DNA of 63,998 bases, the filler included, from Dirinaria sp. TL-2023a (Eukaryota): assembly GCA_051941275.1 (NCBI GenBank). It is 3 parts of 3 records of this genome, joined end to end, with 100 filler letters (N's around TTAATTAATTAA, not from the genome) between each part and the next. Parts side by side here need not be neighbours in the genome. Positions count along the whole stretch, not along the records: positions 22,272 to 44,399 come from JAVEBF010000234.1; 2 more parts are not named here. The stretch is one strand, 5' to 3'. The translations under genes and the position numbers were made by a program. Under the pieces are notes generated by a model. It was not told the DNA's origin and did not search any database. It saw only the letters and a list, made by a program, of their open reading frames with translations. Shown here piece after piece: positions 3,888 through 56,389 of the stretch (within the stretch, counting starts at the first letter, position 1; the number at the start of each line of letters is the position of its first letter).

Positions 3888-6800
3888 TTATAGCTGCTCG
3901 ATATCTGTTACAAGCTGGTCCAGTTGGTCGATGTTATCATTTTCGATAATACTGTGCATCGTGCGCGAGCTTCGAGATGTTAGAACCTTGATCTGGGACC
4001 TACCGGTACACTTACAGGTGACTGATATTCTTATACGCCGCTTTATCCTCCAGCTCTTTTGATTTCAGTGCGGCAACGTCGAGTACCGGTTCGGGTATGT
4101 TCGCCAGTCGAGCAACATTCAACCTGCCATACATCAGCCTCGCCAGTTTCCAGGACACAATGGTATTGTACCCATAGGATCGGTGTGCTACACCCTCGCC
4201 GACCTCGTACAAAAACGTAATATCTTGTCCGTTTTCACCACTTTCGTAAAACCGCATATGGACATTTTTCAGCTGGCCATGTGCGGATCCATGCGCGAGA
4301 GCGCTCAGATGCTGGTAATGAGTAATGAAGAGCGTCAAGCTCTTGGTTTCCCGGACCACATGATCAAGCACAGCCTGTGCAATTGCGACACCATCATGCG
4401 TGGATGTTCCTCGTCCTAACTCGTCCAAAATAATCAAAGACCTCGGCGACGCTTGTTTTAATATATCAGAGGTCTCTGAGAGTTCCACCATGAACGTCGA
4501 TTCGCCGGCCATCATGTTGTCGAAAGCACCCATCCTTGTGAAGACTGCATCAAGCATGCCCAGTTTTGCAGAAGCCGCAGGAACATACGACCCTATTTGG
4601 CCCATGATAGCGATCAGCGCAACTTGTCGAACATAGCTGGATTTGCCGCCCATATTGGGTCCTGTGATAAGGAGGGCCCTAGTTGCATCGAAGGATAGAT
4701 CTATGTCGTTGGGTACGTAGCTATCAAGCAGAAGCTGTTCGACCATGGGATGCCGCCCTTGCTCTACCCAAATGCGAGTTTCCTCGCTGTATTCTGGCTT
4801 TACGTATCCTGGTTGACTAGCAACAGCGGATAGAGATAAAAGGCAGTCTAAAGTAGCAAGGGCTTGGATGCAATCACGAAAAGACTGGTAGTTTGTCGAG
4901 ATCTCGGATAGCAGCTCCGAGAAAGCTACGTCGCATGCAGCTGCCAATGCCTCCCTATGCTGATCTCGTTCTCGAATCAGACGAACAACTTCCGGTGTGT
5001 GATAGCGCGATAGCTTCTTGGTGCCACTGATCTTAGCCCAAGAAGCTGGAACGTGCTTAGTCAAGGTGTTATCAACCTCGATGAGATACTCAATCCCCGC
5101 TGATGTCACAAAGTCCACCCTTTTCTTCCTGAGTTTACCAGCAGCATCGGCGCGGTGGGCATCCAGCTCATGTTCTACGCTCGCTATTCCGAGTTTGTGG
5201 TCCGTGATGCTGTCGCTCTCCATCTCTTCGCGAAAGAATCCGTACTTATCGTCTTGTTTAGCTGCTTCGGCATTGATCTTATCTAGATAAGCTATCACAT
5301 AATCGCTTATCATTGGGAGCGACGCAATAGCTTTATTGAGGATGGTTGAGGAGAATCCGACATCCTCCGGCGTCTTTACAGTCGCAAATTCGTTTGCAAT
5401 TCGTTGCATCGTCTGCAAGACCGTGAGAAGCTCTGGCCGAGTGCACTACGACATGTCAGCTCAATCAAGACCGCCAGCACAACTTCTTACCTTGCCATAG
5501 TATATGCGAATCAAACTTTTCTCCAGATCACTCTTGATCTGTGACAGCAGGCCTCTGACCTTATCGACCTTAACGGTTCGCTCACCACTGAGGAGCTCCT
5601 CGACTGCCGCGATTCGGTCTTCCAAATCCCGCTTTATCAGTAGCGGTCTTCCAACCCATTTTCGCAGCAGCCGGTGGCCAAAGCGGGTTCTCGTCCGATC
5701 CAACGTCCAAAAGAGGCTACCTTTCTCGGAGTGGTCAGTTTGATTTTGGTAGATCTCGAGGCTAGTCAGGGTCGTGCCGTTGAGCAGCATATGTGATCGG
5801 GCACTGAAGGATTGGAAATACTTGGTAAGATCAAAAACGTGCTCAAGTCCAAAATCTGACATCTGTTTGATCATGGCCGACAAGCATATTGTAACGTCTT
5901 CGGCAAGCTTCAGCACTTTGTCGAGAATTTGACTAGCCCTCTCGTCTTCCTGGTCATTAGTTGCCTTCATCTTTCCGGCATAAAAATTGGAAACGTGGTT
6001 ATAAGCCTGCGCCGCCATGTTCTTGGGCTTTTCAACCCTTTCGACTCGAACCTTATCCCCAAAAACGTTCGTGCTACTTCCAGAGATATGTCGGATCAGT
6101 CTCTCGGTTGCCTTGGACAAGTCCCCGACAATAAGTATTTCACAAGGAGCAATGTGAAGTAGCCTTGTTTCGATCTCGCTCCGCATGAAGCCATCTTCAA
6201 AGCTGTCATGTACGACATCTCCGGTTGCCGGCTGCACGGCTAAGACGCCGACATGTACTTTCTCATCCGTTCCCCAGCCATTAGCGTTGGTCTCCGTGAT
6301 ACACACAAGGTAGCCAGTCGCTGGAGCTCCACCAAGTGGAGTACCCGTTGGACCTTCCAGACCCTCGACGTCATCTATATAGGTACCTTTGGTGTAGAGG
6401 TTGGTCAGTTGACGGACAAAGGGTGCATTTCGATTGTCTCCAGCAGCTTTCAGAGCGGCAGTCTCTAGTTGGCGTACAATACCTACTTTGTGGCCTGCAT
6501 TCACAAGGCGCTTGACATGTACGTGAAGCCGATGCACTGGGACGCTTGCCGAAGCAAATCGGTCCAAGTGAGCTTCAGAGGCGTGCTCATCGTACCTCAT
6601 CTTCCCAGGTATACAAACGATGCTTAATTCTCTGGCCGCTATCCTCGCATCTTCGCCGAAGAATCTAAACTTGTAGCCAACCTCCACTATCAAGATCGTG
6701 TCCAGGTGTTTCCGTTTAATGTCAAGAAACTGCTTCTCCATTGGCGTGAGCTTGCCACCTCCTTTCTTGGCTGTAAAACCTTTCTTGCCCCTTGCTGCGG

Positions 6801-7464
6801 GCTTCGGAGCCTCGTCTTCCTCCGGGTCGTCACTGTTCTCTGCATCCGGATGAGACTCTGTGTTCTCTTCCGGAAGTTGCCGATTTCGCCGTTTTATTTC
6901 GGCAATACTGTCTGGGCGACCAAGCTTACTGACAAACTTCTGATGGAGCGACTGCTTCCGTCTTACTATCTCTTCGTCATGCTCGGCGTTCTCTACATCT
7001 TCACTTGGCGGGCTTGAGTAGATGTACTTTGATGTTTTCTCTGTGACCTTCGGTTTCTTGGCTTGATTGGGGGGAATCGAAGTGAGCTTGGATGTCCTGG
7101 CATGGTGGCCATTGGCATTGGATGATAAAGGTGACTTTAGATGCGGGTCTGAGCCACGGCGCCTCTTGCCATTCGGCAGATCCGCTTCAGTGTCGACCTC
7201 AGTAAAACATCGCTTGGATGTGGTCTGGTGTTGGTGGGGGGTAGAAGAGTGGCTCTCTTCGCTATCCGATGCAATGAATAAGGAATTATCCTTCTCATTC
7301 TGGACACTTCCATGGCTTGTTTTCGGATCATTCCTTTGAGGGGCCGTGGTTTTGAGGGTTGACGGTGTCCTAGACGCGTTGCTGCCTTTGGTGAAAAATT
7401 GGGAGATGGACTGCTGCTTCTTGGCCGAGACCGCTAGCTCTGAGGGTTTTGTAGCGCCAACCAT
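3888..7464 (-). CDS. MSH3: DNA mismatch repair protein Msh3 (MutS family)
   Basis: LTPMEKQ and [14 protein letters not shown] (Msh3-type), P-loop [29 protein letters not shown]. Introns read at 5446-5490, 4124-4171 and ~3970-4015 join the ORFs. Ends ...[11 protein letters not shown]. Confidence 0.95.
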
Positions 7465-8096
7465 GATCAGTCCAACAAGGAGATCACATGTCGGGCATGG
7501 CGAGCCTAAATGAAAAATGAAAAATTCGAAAGCTCTCCAGCCCAGGTAGAATCGTCTAATTGAGGTTTCATGGACGTGAACAAAGTCGCGTGCGCCTAAA
7601 GTAGGTCCGAGGGGTTGGACCCTCGGACTGCCACGCTAGTACCAAGTAGGCATTACATAAGGTACCTTATGGGCGCGACAGAAGGTCCTGGTGTTCTTTT
7701 AGGAAAAGGACGGCATCTAAAGTACGCCAATTATGATACCTCGTCTCATACTGGGAAATCGTATTTGATAAAATCACTATAGTCTGTAGCTAACGCTGCT
7801 GAAATTTAATATAGAAGTTTGTACCGGTTGTTTGATAGCGCTGCAGGCATGATGTCAATACCATTTAGTCAACCCCTTTCCCCCTTAAGCTCTGAAGACT
7901 CCCTAGCTGTCTTAAAGACCTTGACATAAGCTTCTCCGCATGCTCGCCTGTAGAAAGGGCATCTGTCGACAGCGGTCTAGTGGAATGACGATCCACGTCC
8001 ACAATTCATCCTCACTGCCATCGATGTGTGTGTGTAAAAGTCCCAAGCCTTCCGCGGTAGTAACGCTGTCAGATCATGTCCGAGATGAGTGGGCTG

Positions 8097-22171: not shown

Positions 22172-22271
22172 NNNNNNNNNNNNNNNNNNNNNNNNNNNNN
22201 NNNNNNNNNNNNNNNTTAATTAATTAANNNNNNNNNNNNNNNNNNNNNNNNNNNNNNNNNNNNNNNNNNNN
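22172..22271. other. Assembly gap with artificial six-frame-stop linker TTAATTAATTAA
   Basis: N-run, ttaattaattaa (22216-22227), N-run; the same construct occurs at 44400-44499. Confidence 0.95.
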
Positions 22272-40846: not shown

Positions 40847-43032
40847 ATGTTGGACAACCAAGAATACGCACACAGCCCGTCGAAGCGTAGACGACTTTCG
40901 CCACCGCCAGATTGGGATCAGTCAGCAGCAGCAGGACGTCGACTGGAAGTTCCCAAAGATACATATCGCGCAGATGGACACAATAAGACTATGAGACTTC
41001 AGGCAAATGGCTCTCAGGATGGCAACGTGACTCTGTCCGCCACGTCGAAGATAGCAGGACAGACCGTTGCTCCATTCCTAGCAAAGCACATACCTCATCA
41101 ATACGCACCGATGGGGGGCGTCGATTCGTCCGGCAGTCCCAAAGCAAAGGATCCTAATACGAAATACTGTTACCGCCATCGACCGGACCAGAAGTGTCGT
41201 CGACAAGCCAATGAGCCTTCCATGGAGCAATTGCAGCATGTGAGTTCGGCGCCCGCGGGTTTACTTGTAGAAGCTTTCTGATAGACCAACAGGAGTTGGA
41301 AGTCCTACCACAGGCAGATAAACAAGCCATCGCGCATGTGTGGTCACTTTTCTCAGCTGCTCCTGCGAAACACCGCAACCTCATGCTGCAAGGCATTCTC
41401 ACCCAGTGTTGCTTTCCTCAGCTCTCGTATTTATCGGTAAACGTGCGTGAGCTCATCCGCATCGATTTTCTCAGTGCACTGCCTGCCGAAGTTGCATTCA
41501 GAGTTCTATGCTTCCTCGACACGACATCCCTCTGCAAAGCCGCTCAGGTGAGCCATAAGTGGAGGACACTTGCAGACGACGACGTGGTATGGCATAGAAT
41601 GTGCGAGCAGCATATTGATCGAAAGTGTACGAAATGTGGTTGGGGGCTACCACTGCTGGAGAAGAAAATCCTGAGAGCATCTAAACGGCAAATCCAGCTG
41701 CGAGCAACTGGTCAAGGTCTCAACGAGTGGTCACCAAATCTTACACCATACCCAGAATCGGTGGATGAGTATCATGGAAACCCAGCCGCCAAGCAGTCTT
41801 CTTCGAATACAGCGACAGCACCAGGTTACAACGCTGTGGCCATGACACGCGACGGATCGAATAACAGCCATGAGAATGACCCCCAATTCCCAAAGCTTCA
41901 ATCCAATGGCTCCGACCTCGCAGACTCCTACTTTAAGCCACAATTGCGACCTTGGAAAGAGGTCTACAAAGACCGGTTCAAGATATGTACAAATTGGAAG
42001 CACGGCCGCTTTTCGACCAAGATCTTCAAAGGCCACGCCAACGGCGTAATGTGCCTGCAATTCTGCGACAACCTGAACGTGCTGGCCACAGGGTCCTACG
42101 ATGCTACTATCAAGATATGGGACCTGGACACATGCGAGGAAATCCGTACCCTACGAGGTCACGACAGCGGTATCCGCTGCCTTCAGTTCGACGATCAAAA
42201 ACTTATCAGTGGGGGCTTGGATCGAAATGTCAAAGTTTGGAACTGGCATACTGGAGAATGCATGTCGACCTACACGGGCCACAGCGGCGGTGTCATTGGA
42301 TTGAACTTCGATGGCGCGATCCTTGCCACGGGATCCATGGACACAACCATCAAGATCTGGAATTTCCAGGACAAATCGACTTATGTCCTCCGTGGCCACA
42401 CGGACTGGGTCAATGCGGTGTCGATTGATTCCACCTCCCGAACGCTCTTTTCCGTCTCGGATGACTTCACCGTCCGCCTGTGGGATCTCGACACGAGAGC
42501 CTGCATCAAGACGTTTGAAGGTCACGTGGGCCAGGTGCAGCAGGTGGTCGCTCTGCCGCCCGAATTTGACTTTGAGGAGTATGACATCGACGAGCACGCC
42601 AGCAGCAGATCCTCAGCCCCAAGCACGCAATCGGATCCCCCAACCGCGCAACCACCGGCCGAGGACCCCTCCTCCTCCTCCTCCTCATCCCATTCGTTCG
42701 GTCCGGGTTTCACCGACGCGGCACGTCCCCTGCCCCCGCGCTACATCCTCACCGGTGCTCTGGACTCAACGGTTCGCCTGTGGGACACGGCGACGCAGAA
42801 ATGCCTCCGCACCTTCTTCGGCCACGTCGAAGGCATCTGGGCCCTCGCGGCCGATACACTGCGCATCGTCTCCGGCGCCGAGGACGGCATGACCAAAGTC
42901 TGGGACGCCAGGACCGGCAAGTGCGACCGCACTTTCACCGGCCACGCCGGGCCTGTCACCTGCCTGGGCCTCAGTGACTGTCGACTGTGCACCGGTGGAG
43001 AGGACTGCGAGGTGAGGATGTATTGCTTCTAG
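40847..43032 (+). CDS. sconB: F-box/WD40 sulfur metabolite repression protein SconB/SCON-2/Met30
   Basis: [19 protein letters not shown]-box [41 protein letters not shown], multiple GH...WD repeats. One intron ~41240-41292. Confidence 0.94.
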
Positions 43033-43484
43033 ATTTTTCCATCATCTAGTTGTGAGAGTATCCGTAGGGAGAACGAGAAAAGTTCGGCGCATTTTCAACC
43101 GATGCAGTCAGTCTGTGCCGAAATCATATTTTTTCTTTTCTCTCTCTCTCGAGGCGCCAGCAAAAGAAAAAAAAAGTTCCTGCTAGCTAGCTTACTGCAT
43201 TGTTTTAAATAGATAGATAGATACCCTTCAAAGTACTCGTACAGTGATGTACATGTAGAATAATGCAAAGTTTTTTTGTCTTGCTTTCTCTCTCCCTCTC
43301 AGAGCTCCGGAATCAATAAATACAGTAATCCGTGCCATCAACCATCATAAAAAAAGGTTTAATATCTACAGGCAGAAATAGAGAGAAATTTTGAAAGCAA
43401 AACAGCGATATAGGAGGAACTCGATCATATTATCAATTAAAATTACCTTTGAATTCGAAGAGCTACTGAGGGTTACCACTGGCG

Positions 43485-44399
43485 ATGGGGCCCGCGATCC
43501 ACCCTGACCGTCGCGGTGAGGTGAACGCGGTCGACGCGACGTCGACAAGTGAACGAGACATCATCGAGGCGTCTTCGCAGAGAAGGATATCAGAATCGAG
43601 CGAAATATTGAATGAGGTAAATAAGATTGTGAGACTCTATGAGTCTAAGAGAATTAATGTCAGCGAAATGATGTCGATGACTGAACTGCACAATCTGTTC
43701 GACATGATTCGCGCAAAGACGCGTCAGAGCGAAGTCGCAACTATCTCGATCACACAAAATGATAGCGGCGCGATGATTGCGCGACTTGAGAAAATGATCA
43801 GCAGACTTGAAAAAGCTGTACAAAAGAAGAAACACGTGCAGAAAAAGAGTAATTGAGCGAAGATAACGATTATGAGCATCGCGAGCGCACAAAAAACAAC
43901 ACGCGTCAACGTTACTGCTACATCGTCGAAGCGTCAGCTGAGCAGAGAACTGAAGATTGTGATCTGAATCAAAGAAGACGCGAAGACGAAAAGAGTACAA
44001 AAAATGAGTGCAGCAGAGATGATCGCACTGACACAAAAGCTCAACAACGTCAACACGCTCTCGACGCGCAAGAGTATATTGAGAATTCGAAGATTCAAGA
44101 GCATGATAGTTTTTCGCGTCGACTCGAAGACTGTCAAAAAAACGCTGAAATCGAGCGATCATTGAGTCAAAGATGTGTTCAAGACGATCACTCTGCGTCA
44201 GAAACGCGCAGACGTACTGATACACGAAGTACGAGTCAAAAGAATATCAGCAGATATGACGAAGAATTCAAAGATCATTGAAGAAGTCTGCGCGAGAACA
44301 CACTCGAGACTTAAAGTGAATAAGACAGAGTGACTTACGAAGAATATCGACAAAAAAGATTATTCGTTCTTGATCGTGTGAGTCACGAGCGCTGAGATG
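43485..44399 (+). mobile_element. Hypermutated non-LTR (LINE, Tad1-like) retrotransposon ORF1/gag remnant, truncated by the gap
   Basis: One frame from ATG 43485 broken only by TGA codons. Residual motifs SN*AKI, LIHEVRV and YSFLIV resemble the xWAxV, VHGV and SSLIV motifs I recall from fungal LINE ORF1. Extreme CC/GG depletion; lies at a contig end. Confidence 0.7.
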
Positions 44400-44499
44400 N
44401 NNNNNNNNNNNNNNNNNNNNNNNNNNNNNNNNNNNNNNNNNNNTTAATTAATTAANNNNNNNNNNNNNNNNNNNNNNNNNNNNNNNNNNNNNNNNNNNN
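44400..44499. other. Assembly gap with artificial six-frame-stop linker TTAATTAATTAA
   Basis: N-run, ttaattaattaa (44444-44455), N-run. Confidence 0.95.
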
Positions 44500-45524
44500 C
44501 CCACCCTCCCCCCTATTCAGCGTCAATCCAAGAAAGAAGCAGTTCCGAAGCCTTCAGTCGTTATATTGTATAGACACGTCGCCCGTAGTTTTTGAAATTT
44601 CATCATCCCATTATCCTCGAATGGCCCCAGATCCTGCAAATACCACGCACTATTACCTCCCATCCTTCCCCTCCCTCGAACAACCCTTGCCTCAAAAAGT
44701 CCCTGCTTCCCTCAGTAACCCACATATACACATACACACACACATTCTCTCTCTCTCTCGGATGTTTTTGAAACCAAGGCGCGGGCGGAGGAAAGCCAAA
44801 ACCTTCATGTCTGGACCCCGGCTGCTTACCGTACCTATAGTATGTACGGTGCAACCCCGACTCCGACGAGACTGAGAACAAGGTGGAAAACGGATCATCC
44901 ATATCACCGACGGATGCTCCGCCGGGCCGACCATTTTCAACAGCTGTGTCCTGAAAACCTCTACTGAGTTTAGTATATGTATAAATTTCTTCCTTGAGGG
45001 ATCGGATGATCGCCAGGATTGGGGAAACATGGACGCATTATTGGGGAAATTTGTTTGCGCCTGGGGACTTCGGACTCCGAAAGGAGCGCGGTCGCTGTTT
45101 ACGGGATATGAATTATACCGAATGGCTGTCTGTGACTAGGATGAGTACTTGTATGTATGTAGATTGCCTGCTTCTCGGTCGCAAATACATATCCTGGAAC
45201 ACGTTTACATTTGCGCTTAAGTCTTGGGAATTTGCGGTAGGCCATGGGTTTTGGAAAGAGTACGGTACAAGTACCTATTTGACTCTGCCCTTTTATCATA
45301 TTCACCTAGCGCAAAAACATGCTGAAGCGTGCTCCCAGCTGATCGTCAACCAACCACGACCCGAAATTTGGAATCTATTCGTGCAGGGAATTCAGTTTTC
45401 CAATACCGCATTAATTAGTTCTAGCAGTCTACATATTACGGACATGCGTCAACCATCGTTTGCCTGAACAACGCCGGCGCTATGCACATCACAATAAGCC
45501 ACCTGCCCACCCCAAAAAATCATC

Positions 45525-53699: not shown

Positions 53700-56389
53700 T
53701 CACTGCGCGGTCATGCTTTGGTTGAGCGAGGACTTTGTAGGAGTCTGGTCGCGTTTCAACGTGCGGACAAGAGCTTCCAGTTTACGGCGTTCCTCCTGTT
53801 CATACTATTTTGCTGGTCAATGTTGTGCGCTCGAACTGAGTGAAGATTCCTTACCCTCAATGCCCGCATGTTCTCTGCCCTCGTATCTCTCATCATCTTC
53901 TTGAATTCATTCTTCAAGACTTGCGTGCTGGTAGTGCCCGGACTCATGGAATCTCTTGCCCCAACACTGCCAGGACTCTTCACGCCAAGCGATCGCACCT
54001 TTTCTTCGCTAAGCTGAGTCTCGAGAGCTTCGCATCGATCTCGCAATGTATCTAGACTGCTTTCTAATTGCTCTCGTTCACGTTCGAATTCGATGGTGGA
54101 CTTAGTCATGGCCTCGTACTCCCCAATGGTCTCTGTAAGCTCTCGTTGCAAAGTCTGCACGCGTTGGCTCATCTCGTTGTGGCCAGCTTTGAAATTCTCG
54201 AGCTCTTTAGTCAGGTCCTTGTTGCGTGCACTGACTTCTTCATATTCTTGCTGTTTCGCTGGCTTCGCAGCGTTCTCAGCCGCTCGTTCTGCCCGTGTAC
54301 CGTAAGCAGCGTCTAATTCTGCCTTAGCTACCGTGAGTTCTGTCTGGAGCATGATCATCTGTCCTTCACGCTCCTGCAGCTCGTTGTGCGCCTTATCTTT
54401 GTCGGCTTGTGCGGTCTTGTAGTCCGAGGTCAAGCTCTGCATACGTTTCTCGGACTCTTCGAGTCGACCAAGCATCTCAGCGTTAGCAATCCCAAAATCA
54501 TCTTTAGTCTCTGCAAGCTCGTTTTCAATTTCAGCAAGTCGCTCTTGCTTTTCGGACAAATCGGCATATAGCCGTTCTTCGGTCTCGTGCCTCGCTTCTT
54601 TCTCTGCGGCAAGCGCCTCGTTCTCCTCCAGGCCTCGCTGCTGCTCTAGCAAGCTGGCTTCCTGCCTTATCGTATCAACACGCTCGGTCATAAGTTCAAC
54701 GCTATCTTGTGCCTCTTTCACTTCTCTCTCCTTTTTCGCTAGCGATTGCTTTGTTTTCTCTATTTCCAGTGACATCTCCGATATTTTGGTATCTTTTGCC
54801 GAGTCCGACTGCGTGTTGAGTTCCCTCTGTTGTTGTACTTGTCGGGACAATATCTCCTTCTGCTCTTGCAAACCAGTGGCACGCGCAAAGAGGGTTTGGA
54901 CTTTGGTCGAAAATAATTGAAGTGAGAACTCTTCACCTGAAACTTCACGTTGCACCGGATCCTGCCGTCTCAATTCTTCTTCGCCACCAACCAAAATCTC
55001 CCACAGGCCTCGTAGCACGGTCTTGTAATGCTCTGCTTCTTCAATACTAGCCGCTTTCGAGGACATGTTACGATTATCTTCACTTAGACGGTGTATGCTC
55101 TGCTCGACAGCACCCAGTCCAGCTTCCAAGTAGCTCACTTGGACATCCGGCCTTGTCCCAGAAGCTTCAGGCGGCAACGGATACTCGGATTTCTGACCTT
55201 GAAATCCGCGAGTAATGATGCTACGTAATCGGGTATTAAGTACTCCAAGATGCTCTTCTATTGCATATACCGAATGTTTTAGTTGTTGCGTGGAGGCGTC
55301 CTGGCTCCTTTGGAGGGCCGAGAAATTTCTCTCGAGATAACTCAGTTGCCCGTCAAGTGCTCCTATGAGCTCTCGACTATCATCCAAATGTTGTATAGGG
55401 GGTACAGGCTCTGTGTGATTGTGAGAGTCCTGCTGGCTGATCGTGTTCCTTAGACGCCGATTAAAATCTTCGAGCTTTCGTTCTGTTTCAAGGATCGCCT
55501 GGTCGTAATGCGCAAACTCCTCCTTAGATGCACCCCTTGCCGCATTTCCATGAGTGCTGGAGGTATCTAGCAGTATATCGAGTGTTTGATAGAAGCTTCT
55601 GTCGTCGAAGCCCATGCTTAGATCCAGTAGATCGACAGGAGTTCGCCCGATGAGGTGACCATTTGCTTCAGCTTGCCTGGGACTTGAGTTATCTTTCTCC
55701 AGGAAACCCTTGTGCGTCTTTTGCAGTATTCCAGCAGTATGTTCCAGAAGTTTTGTCTGCAGTATTTCTGCACGCTTCTCAAGGCCCCATAGTTCCTGCG
55801 CTAGATCTTCGCACTTCCTAGTACTGATTGCCAACTCGTCATCTGTTTTGTTCAACATGTCGCTAAAGCTGCCCTTGCTGCCCATTGTACTGCGTCGATG
55901 TCGCCTCCCACCTTTGGGAGAGCCTTCCATCATCTCGGACGATGTTGGATCTTGAAGGCGGTTCAGTGACTGTGCTGCATCGCGAAGCTTTGTTTCTAGG
56001 ACGAGTTTGCGTTTCGTACCATCTATTCGAGTTCCCAGTATGGATAATTCTTTCTTGATGGCATCGATTTCCTCGTATGATAGGACGTGAAATTGCTGGC
56101 TGTCACCCATGGCTGTTTCCATCAGTAAATGCATTGCGACCGGATCATCCATATTGAGGAGCTGAGGTGTTGGTGGAGGTCTATGTCGACTCATCTAAAT
56201 CTTGTCAGCACTTTGGGCGCGGACCGGTATTCAACTATAACGAACAACATCGTAGCGCGGATGTTCTCCAGAGCTACTGTAAGCGTCCACCAGGGCCTTC
56301 GCTCCAATGTGAACGCTTTGCAGGCCAGCACCATAATGAGTATCTATGCTCGAAGAGGACGAGGCTTGCCGCGGCCGAGTACCGTTCAT
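53700..56389 (-). CDS. Uds1 (up-regulated during septation) domain coiled-coil protein
   Basis: DDPVAMHLLMETAMGDS..VLSYEE..LKKE-like region, LETKLRDAAQSL, LLEHTAGILQ, long coiled coil, LKNEFKKMMRDTRAE. Last exon YEQEERRKLE...SMTAQ*. Start uncertain. Confidence 0.8.

Follow-up and report, generated by a model that had tools for sequence, protein, structure and literature searches.

A retrotransposon remnant free of CC and GG suggests CpC-first, RIP-like hypermutation in a lichen-forming fungus

The window, a stretch of 63,998 nt that was analysed as a whole, derives from a lichen-forming fungus of the class Lecanoromycetes and carries the remnant of a retrotransposon gene from which CC and GG are absent over 631 nt. 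The host class follows from the TFIIH-subunit gene on the third piece, whose product shares 99% identity with a protein listed by NCBI under a Dirinaria sp. genome (a MAG), all further named matches being Lecanoromycetes. We consider it likely that this copy was subjected to RIP-like, homology-directed hypermutation in a Lecanoromycete, with the target hierarchy CpC >> CpT > CpA >> CpG. Transitions, an equal effect on both strands, a rule set by the 3′ neighbour, restriction to the element and separate hits on other copies together amount to RIP-like behaviour in everything save the choice of neighbour. In this choice, the CpC preference of the tract breaks with CpA, the feature usually held typical of RIP. 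The tract and its borders are given below, with positions counted along the window.

43769–44399, no strand: interval with zero CC and zero GG as first delimited from dinucleotide counts
43530–44399, no strand: putatively hypermutated tract, with 4 GG and 0 CC in 870 nt
43485–43529, + strand: 5′ edge of the open reading frame, unmutated in this copy, with normal CC/GG and intact Gly and Pro codons
44400–44499, no strand: artificial joint of assembly pieces (44 N, TTAATTAATTAA, 44 N), not biology

The base make-up of the 631-nt interval (A241, G151, C120, T119) leads to an expectation of 22.8 CC and 36.1 GG (58.9 combined), and neither dinucleotide occurs. Among 20,000 mononucleotide shuffles of the interval, the CC+GG count had a mean of 58.5 and a minimum of 36. 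The 1,219 other N-free segments of 631 nt in the whole stretch contained at least 41 and on average 72.6. Counts, shuffles and other segments thus all bear out the absence of CC and GG that a preliminary description of this DNA had reported, and CpA (46), TpG (38) and CpG (50) are as plentiful as was stated there. GA is over-represented (85 versus 57.7 expected, 1.47-fold), as is TC (37 versus 22.6, 1.64-fold), and TA is scarce (20 versus 45.5). The ratio (CpC+GpG)/(TpC+GpA), an index unused in RIPCAL, is 0 in this interval, and the GC content of the tract is 43%. The limits 43769 and 44399 hold for the interval that lacks both dinucleotides, but depletion sets in earlier, near 43530: from there to 43768 no CC and only four GG (at 43568, 43585, 43616 and 43767) were counted, and (CC+GG)/(TC+GA) is 0.02 in 43530–44399 versus 0.83 in the rest of the stretch. 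At the 3′ side, the limit of 44399 simply reflects the end of the assembly piece. The first ~45 nt of the reading frame (43485–43529) are normal and are followed by a gradient with the four GG up to 43768, which looks like an edge effect. The observed/expected ratio of CpG is 1.74 in 43769–44399, with no sign of CpG-methylation decay.

The element that carries the tract was examined in translation. Its reading frame and the in-frame stops are as follows.

43485–44399, + strand: 5′ part (~305 codons) of a dead gag-like ORF1, ending with the assembly piece, before the zinc knuckles
43854–43856, + strand: in-frame TGA at a Trp position of the relatives (TGG>TGA)
43965–43967, + strand: in-frame TGA at a Trp position of the relatives
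44163–44165, + strand: in-frame TGA at a Trp position of the relatives
44331–44333, + strand: in-frame TGA at a Trp position of the relatives
44379–44381, + strand: in-frame TGA at a Trp position of the relatives

The + strand from 43470 to 44399 can be read in a single frame over 310 codons, interrupted by no stops other than the five TGA. When TGA is read as Trp, this frame matches the protein P0001 with 63% identity over 188 residues (E 9e-68), and 49 cluster representatives are found at E ≤ 0.001, 25 of them at ≤ 1e-10. In both P0007 and P0174, the start Met lines up with the ATG at 43485. Homology to the relatives begins only at ~43479, and the 5′ UTR is therefore short, diverged or missing. 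A Pfam search with four translations of the tract gave no match above cut-off. Intact relatives (411–541 aa) carry three Cys/His knuckle-like motifs past the matched part, as seen by eye in P0001 and P0003, and Pfam matches to zf-CCHC in the relatives lie below cut-off only. In a structure model of P0006 that was built from 16 relatives (mean pLDDT 62.9), long N-terminal helices are predicted at 59–135 and a core at ~170–350 with pLDDT 73–90. The best solved look-alikes of this predicted core are tandem-RRM proteins (Foldseek probability ~1, with TM of only 0.27–0.39). ORF1 of non-LTR elements has the architecture coiled coil, then RRM, then CCHC. The element is probably ORF1 of a non-LTR (Tad1-like) retrotransposon; this assignment is probable rather than proven because the position of ORF2 falls past the piece end at 44399. 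A retrotransposon remnant, as initially proposed, is thus what the tract contains, in the form of a gag-like ORF1 whose relatives carry CCHC knuckle-like motifs.

To read the direction of the base changes, the tract was compared with its protein relatives. The DNA-level evidence consists of one copy of one family, the ancestral states were taken from protein relatives with a parsimony choice of codons, and these relatives serve as references and are not ancestors. All five Trp of P0001 fall on TGA in the tract, never on TAG. Six of its seven Pro fall on TCN (Ser) and the seventh on CTC. The ten Gly of P0001 are found at GAN after a base other than G, and after G mostly at AGN or AAN, the exceptions being one transversion and two sites where an additional G>A preceded by A is required. 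If the 3′ C were the one mutated, the expected products would be TAG, Leu, and AGN whatever base precedes. The observed replacements therefore indicate that the 5′ C of CpC was mutated and not the 3′ C. Codon parsimony over the 188 aligned residues, 74 of which differ, gave 83 nucleotide changes relative to P0001, which are distributed as follows.

G>A, 46 in all: 5′ neighbour G in 36, A in 8, C in 1 and T in 1
C>T, 16 in all: 3′ neighbour C in 15 and T in 1
Reverse transitions: 15
Transversions: 6

G>A and C>T therefore make up 62 of the 83 changes, and a single one of these 62 is of the CpA type. A second comparison, with the N-terminal 80 aligned residues of P0174 that do not overlap the part matched by P0001, showed 13 G>A or C>T among 26 changes, 12 of the 13 in GG/CC context; the remainder are mostly reverse-direction changes in the P0174 copy. 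When both comparisons are pooled, GG/CC is the context of 63 of the 75 inferred G>A or C>T, with changes on either strand. That both strands are affected is also seen from the absence of CC as well as GG, from the excess of both GA and TC and from the occurrence of Pro to TCN and Gly to GAN on the same strand. The sites left in 43836–44399 are 0 CC+GG, 78 CT+AG, 45 CpG and 74 CA+TG. From these numbers, conversion can be estimated at roughly 100% at CpC, ~10% at CpT and ~1% at CpA and CpG, all of them lower bounds with silent changes unseen. The suggestion in the preliminary description that the 5′ C of CpC is converted to T on both strands, and to saturation, is consistent with these data, as Trp goes to TGA, Pro to TCN and Gly to GAN or AGN/AAN and no CC or GG site remains. 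CpC as the target needs qualification, being the first target and not the sole one: CpT-type changes come second, other contexts are affected in heavier copies, and CpG is spared.

DNA of other copies was obtained from public sequencing runs. Only two runs, X1 and X2, were found to contain sequence like the tract, both at a small share, and no RNA run was among those listed. Their contigs are 85–203 nt long, have a depth of 2–3.5, are 90–97% alike to the tract and leave 43000–43657 and 43940–44127 uncovered. Of the 23 listed differences between run contigs and tract, which at this low depth may singly be errors, 21 are transitions. With G/C taken as the older state, 13 of these are CpT-type, 4 CpC-type (one ambiguous), 4 CpA-type and none CpG-type. 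X2 reads GGG and GG at sites that are GAA and GA in the window copy, and X1, in which none of the listed differences reads CC or GG, has lost the last GG of the window copy (43767–43768). Once CpC is exhausted, copies differ chiefly at CpT, and CpG stays intact even though no other C context is as frequent in the tract.

Public data contain multiple copies of the family, altered to different degrees. Six copies that cover the N-terminal part (the window copy, P0174, P0172, P0173, P0007 and P0015) form a graded series of Gly and Pro loss. P0174 has kept nearly all of its Gly and Pro, and in the other N-terminal copies Gly is replaced by D, E, S, R, N or K and Pro by S, L or F. The series is not nested: MGP, HP and RRG are intact in the window copy and lost among P0172, P0173, P0007 and P0015 (the Pro of HP and the Gly of RRG in P0172 and P0173), and the Gly in 'LYG' (P0172) and 'ERG' (P0173) are retained where the window copy has lost Gly. 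Different copies were therefore hit at the same sites in separate events. The copies with the heaviest alteration also show His>Tyr, which is of the CpA type. Of 51 relatives, which come from ENA records and possibly from one shared study or lineage, 17 have a Gly+Pro content of 7–15%, and 24, which add up to 3,428 residues and reach 384 aa at most, lack Gly and Pro altogether. The 24 Gly/Pro-free relatives (P0020, P0005, P0018, P0029 and 20 others) carry 47 Trp. Each of the four Trp of P0020 falls on a TGA of the window, and for three of these the frame is shifted and no Trp codon ever stood there; most likely, then, the Gly/Pro-free proteins were predicted by reading TGA as Trp. Judged from these sequences, the public Gly/Pro-free 'proteins' are most likely hypermutated ORF1 wrecks that were translated in this way. 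Searches for the DNA of the relatives gave 113 pattern matches in metagenome contigs, none of which was confirmed, and no match to a degenerate 26-nt pattern; in viral contigs, none of 32 pattern matches was confirmed.

Outside the element, the DNA of the window is ordinary in its CC/GG content. The gene next to the element on the same piece is the following.

41215–43032, + strand: upstream single-copy F-box/WD40 gene (Pfam F-box-like and WD40), with normal CC/GG

As this gene is normal in CC/GG, the mutation is confined to the element, and the 1,219 other segments of the stretch likewise have ordinary CC/GG. No further copies of the element were found within the 64-kb stretch by tblastn or blastn. 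Of the 31 ORFs of at least 200 aa, 24 were scanned, and none belonged to a transposon family; 17 of them matched ordinary cellular families and 7 were without match. The confinement of the tract to the element, together with the independent hits in separate copies, fits the repeat-directed process that had been postulated from the tract alone.

Taken together, these observations can be accounted for by the following mechanism. A dead copy of a retrotransposon ORF1 would have been struck by repeat-directed C>T hypermutation of double-stranded DNA, with a C that has C at its 3′ side as the preferred target (CpC>TpC, equal to GpG>GpA on the opposite strand). The window copy would represent an early, light stage in which all CpC, only a minor part of the CpT and hardly any CpA or CpG have been changed, and heavier-hit copies of the family would then lose C in other contexts. 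A GC content still at 43% and the negative classical RIP indices would be explained by this light, CpC-first stage. Recognition of repeats by homology, premeiotic timing and a RID/DIM-2-type enzyme with altered flanking-base preference are presumed parts of this mechanism.

A CC/GG signature on a retroelement and Trp codons turned into stops are also features of APOBEC3G editing, and a RIP-unrelated deaminase (AID/APOBEC-like or other) might have edited retroelement DNA or cDNA at CpC. Indeed, the target is a retroelement, and enzymes that prefer dinucleotides including CC exist, APOBEC3G among them. However, APOBEC3G acts on minus-strand cDNA, where it deaminates the second (3′) C of CC and so gives GG>AG and TGG>TAG on one strand, whereas here the 5′ C is hit (GG>GA, with TGG>TGA in five of five cases) on both strands. 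Editing of first-strand cDNA would yield G>A only and leave the CC of the coding strand intact, but both strands of the tract are saturated (coding-strand CC 0, Pro to TCN in six of seven, 16 C>T beside 46 G>A). The APOBEC-type pattern of strand-biased G>A with a 5′-neighbour context is not what was found, since the 3′ neighbour decides, as in RIP, whereas APOBECs use the 5′ neighbour. The internal 5′ edge of the tract and its gradient also speak against such an enzyme, which we regard as an improbable source of the pattern. Somewhat less probable still is non-CpG methylation by a DIM-2-type enzyme followed by slow spontaneous deamination of 5-methylcytosine, with no active hypermutation. This route would give C>T on both strands, and methylation of repeats by DIM-2 is known in ascomycetes. 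On the other hand, complete conversion at CpC beside ~1% at CpA and CpG, in a copy that is still 63% identical to a relative at the protein level, is hard to reach by slow decay, and the copies differ in an all-or-patchy, non-nested manner.

An artefact, in the form of a chimeric or mis-assembled contig end, a damaged template or the repeat of another lichen fungus joined on, would agree with a tract that runs up to the terminal base of its assembly piece, with a metagenome-assembled genome (MAG) as the nearest named relative and with the lack of cover by run contigs at the junction between gene and element. We nevertheless consider it very unlikely: two other runs contain pieces that are 90–97% similar and largely free of CC/GG (with GG retained at two sites in X2), 24 of the 51 relatives from databases lack Gly and Pro, and on either strand the changes obey the reading frame and a strict rule on the neighbouring base. 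We know of no sequencing error that produces a frame-respecting neighbour rule on both strands. Further explanations were considered and rejected. UV would act on dipyrimidines at their 3′ C throughout the genome, and TC is over-represented in the tract; guanine oxidation should lead to transversions; and damage of the bisulfite or ancient-DNA type is blind to neighbouring bases. The relatives with 7–15% Gly+Pro speak against an original lack of CC/GG.

RIP-like hypermutation with CpC as first target was compared with the systems that have been described. For classical RIP, the available text of the source papers gives thresholds of TpA/ApT ≥ 0.89 and (CpA+TpG)/(ApC+GpT) ≤ 1.03 (PMC2621366, PMC3897900). 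The tract shows values of 0.48 and 1.12, both negative for classical RIP. With TA low, the pattern is thus not canonical CpA to TpA RIP and is missed by the standard indices, as had been anticipated. In the accessible sections of PMC5496416, the order of RIP targets in Neurospora is CpA>CpT>CpG>CpC, and in Trichoderma reesei crosses CpA and CpG rank top and CpC last. The tract resembles RIP of Neurospora crassa (RID, DIM-2) in the change of C:G to T:A on both strands, confined to an element that is multi-copy in public data, in the role of the 3′ base in setting the preference, in the independent hits on different copies and in the stops that kill the coding frames. In contrast to Neurospora, the preference is inverted here (CpC >> CpT > CpA >> CpG), TpA is not raised and the indices are negative. 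A survey of 1,239 fungal genomes states, in the text available, that RIP-like defences share the CpA preference (PMC12543289).

In lichen fungi, the accessible parts of several reports describe RIP in Cladonia rangiformis, Xanthoria and Endocarpon, and RID and DIM-2 homologues in Cladonia, where graded RIP levels are read as cycle numbers (PMC12542154, bioRxiv 10.1101/2025.11.25.690456, PMC3897900). LINE/Tad1 elements are named among the RIP targets in two of them (PMC12542154, bioRxiv 10.1101/2025.11.25.690456). As far as these parts go, the tract agrees with the lichen reports in host class and in the kind of retroelements affected, LINE/Tad1 included, but RIP detection in the reports relies on low GC or on indices built on CpA (RIPper and RIPCAL defaults), whereas the tract is CpC-type; no CpC context was found in the parts of these reports available to us. 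With a GC content of 43%, compared with the 35% GC threshold stated in the accessible part of PMC12542154, the tract would therefore be called 'unripped'. A RIP-like, context-specific C>T change of transposable elements at a non-CpA target is described for Pucciniomycotina (Microbotryum and Puccinia), namely hypermutation at TpCpG, in the available text of PMC3318451. The trinucleotide given there contains CpG, unlike the tract, where CpG is spared (0/21 transitions, observed/expected 1.74). The same text cites Clutterbuck 2011 for considerable variation of target sites among ascomycetes, and a similar preference may already be listed in Clutterbuck 2011. A description of CpC-preferring RIP was not found in the literature searched, most subscription journals lying outside it.

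Surveys of RIP, the kingdom-wide one included, score the products of CpA>TpA or low GC. They would under-call a lineage in which mutation begins at CpC and read its young, lightly hit repeats as intact. The wider proposition that Lecanoromycete fungi run a RIP machinery with the inverted hierarchy CpC >> CpT > CpA >> CpG, so that early RIP is invisible to every CpA-based index, has in our judgement an even chance of being correct. If the inverted hierarchy is true, it implies a retargeted RID/DIM-2 enzyme or a new deaminase, and the inverted preference would be a natural variant for probing how RID/DIM-2-type enzymes choose the flanking base. CpC-type mutation strips all Gly and Pro codons, and TGA is the sole new stop. 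The change of Trp to TGA would then be so systematic that gene callers read the wrecks as proteins with TGA as Trp. Metagenome gene callers appear to yield long Gly/Pro-free 'proteins' in this manner, polluting protein databases.

Several other features of the window were recorded. Identical 100-nt joints (44 N, TTAATTAATTAA, 44 N) at 22172–22271 and 44400–44499 divide the stretch into pieces of 22,171, 22,128 and 19,499 nt, and gene neighbourhood across the joints is therefore not real. A low CC+GG content at 54001–54600 (observed/expected 0.44–0.5) was considered and rejected as a second case; it belongs to a coiled-coil gene with skewed amino acids and is not a repeat.

53759–56194, − strand: coiled-coil gene (Pfam Uds1 and DUF7801), unrelated to the tract

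Simple repeats lie around the joint region, namely (TAGA)n at ~43209–43224 and (CA)n followed by (CT)n at ~44716–44760. On the − strand, 4015–7635 contains a mismatch-repair gene of the MutS family (MutS domains I, II, III and V) in two open frames, presumably split by an intron. Other housekeeping genes in the stretch encode 2-oxoglutarate dehydrogenase, RIO kinase, ATG17, Cdc37, Sin1 and, in the third piece, a TFIIH subunit.
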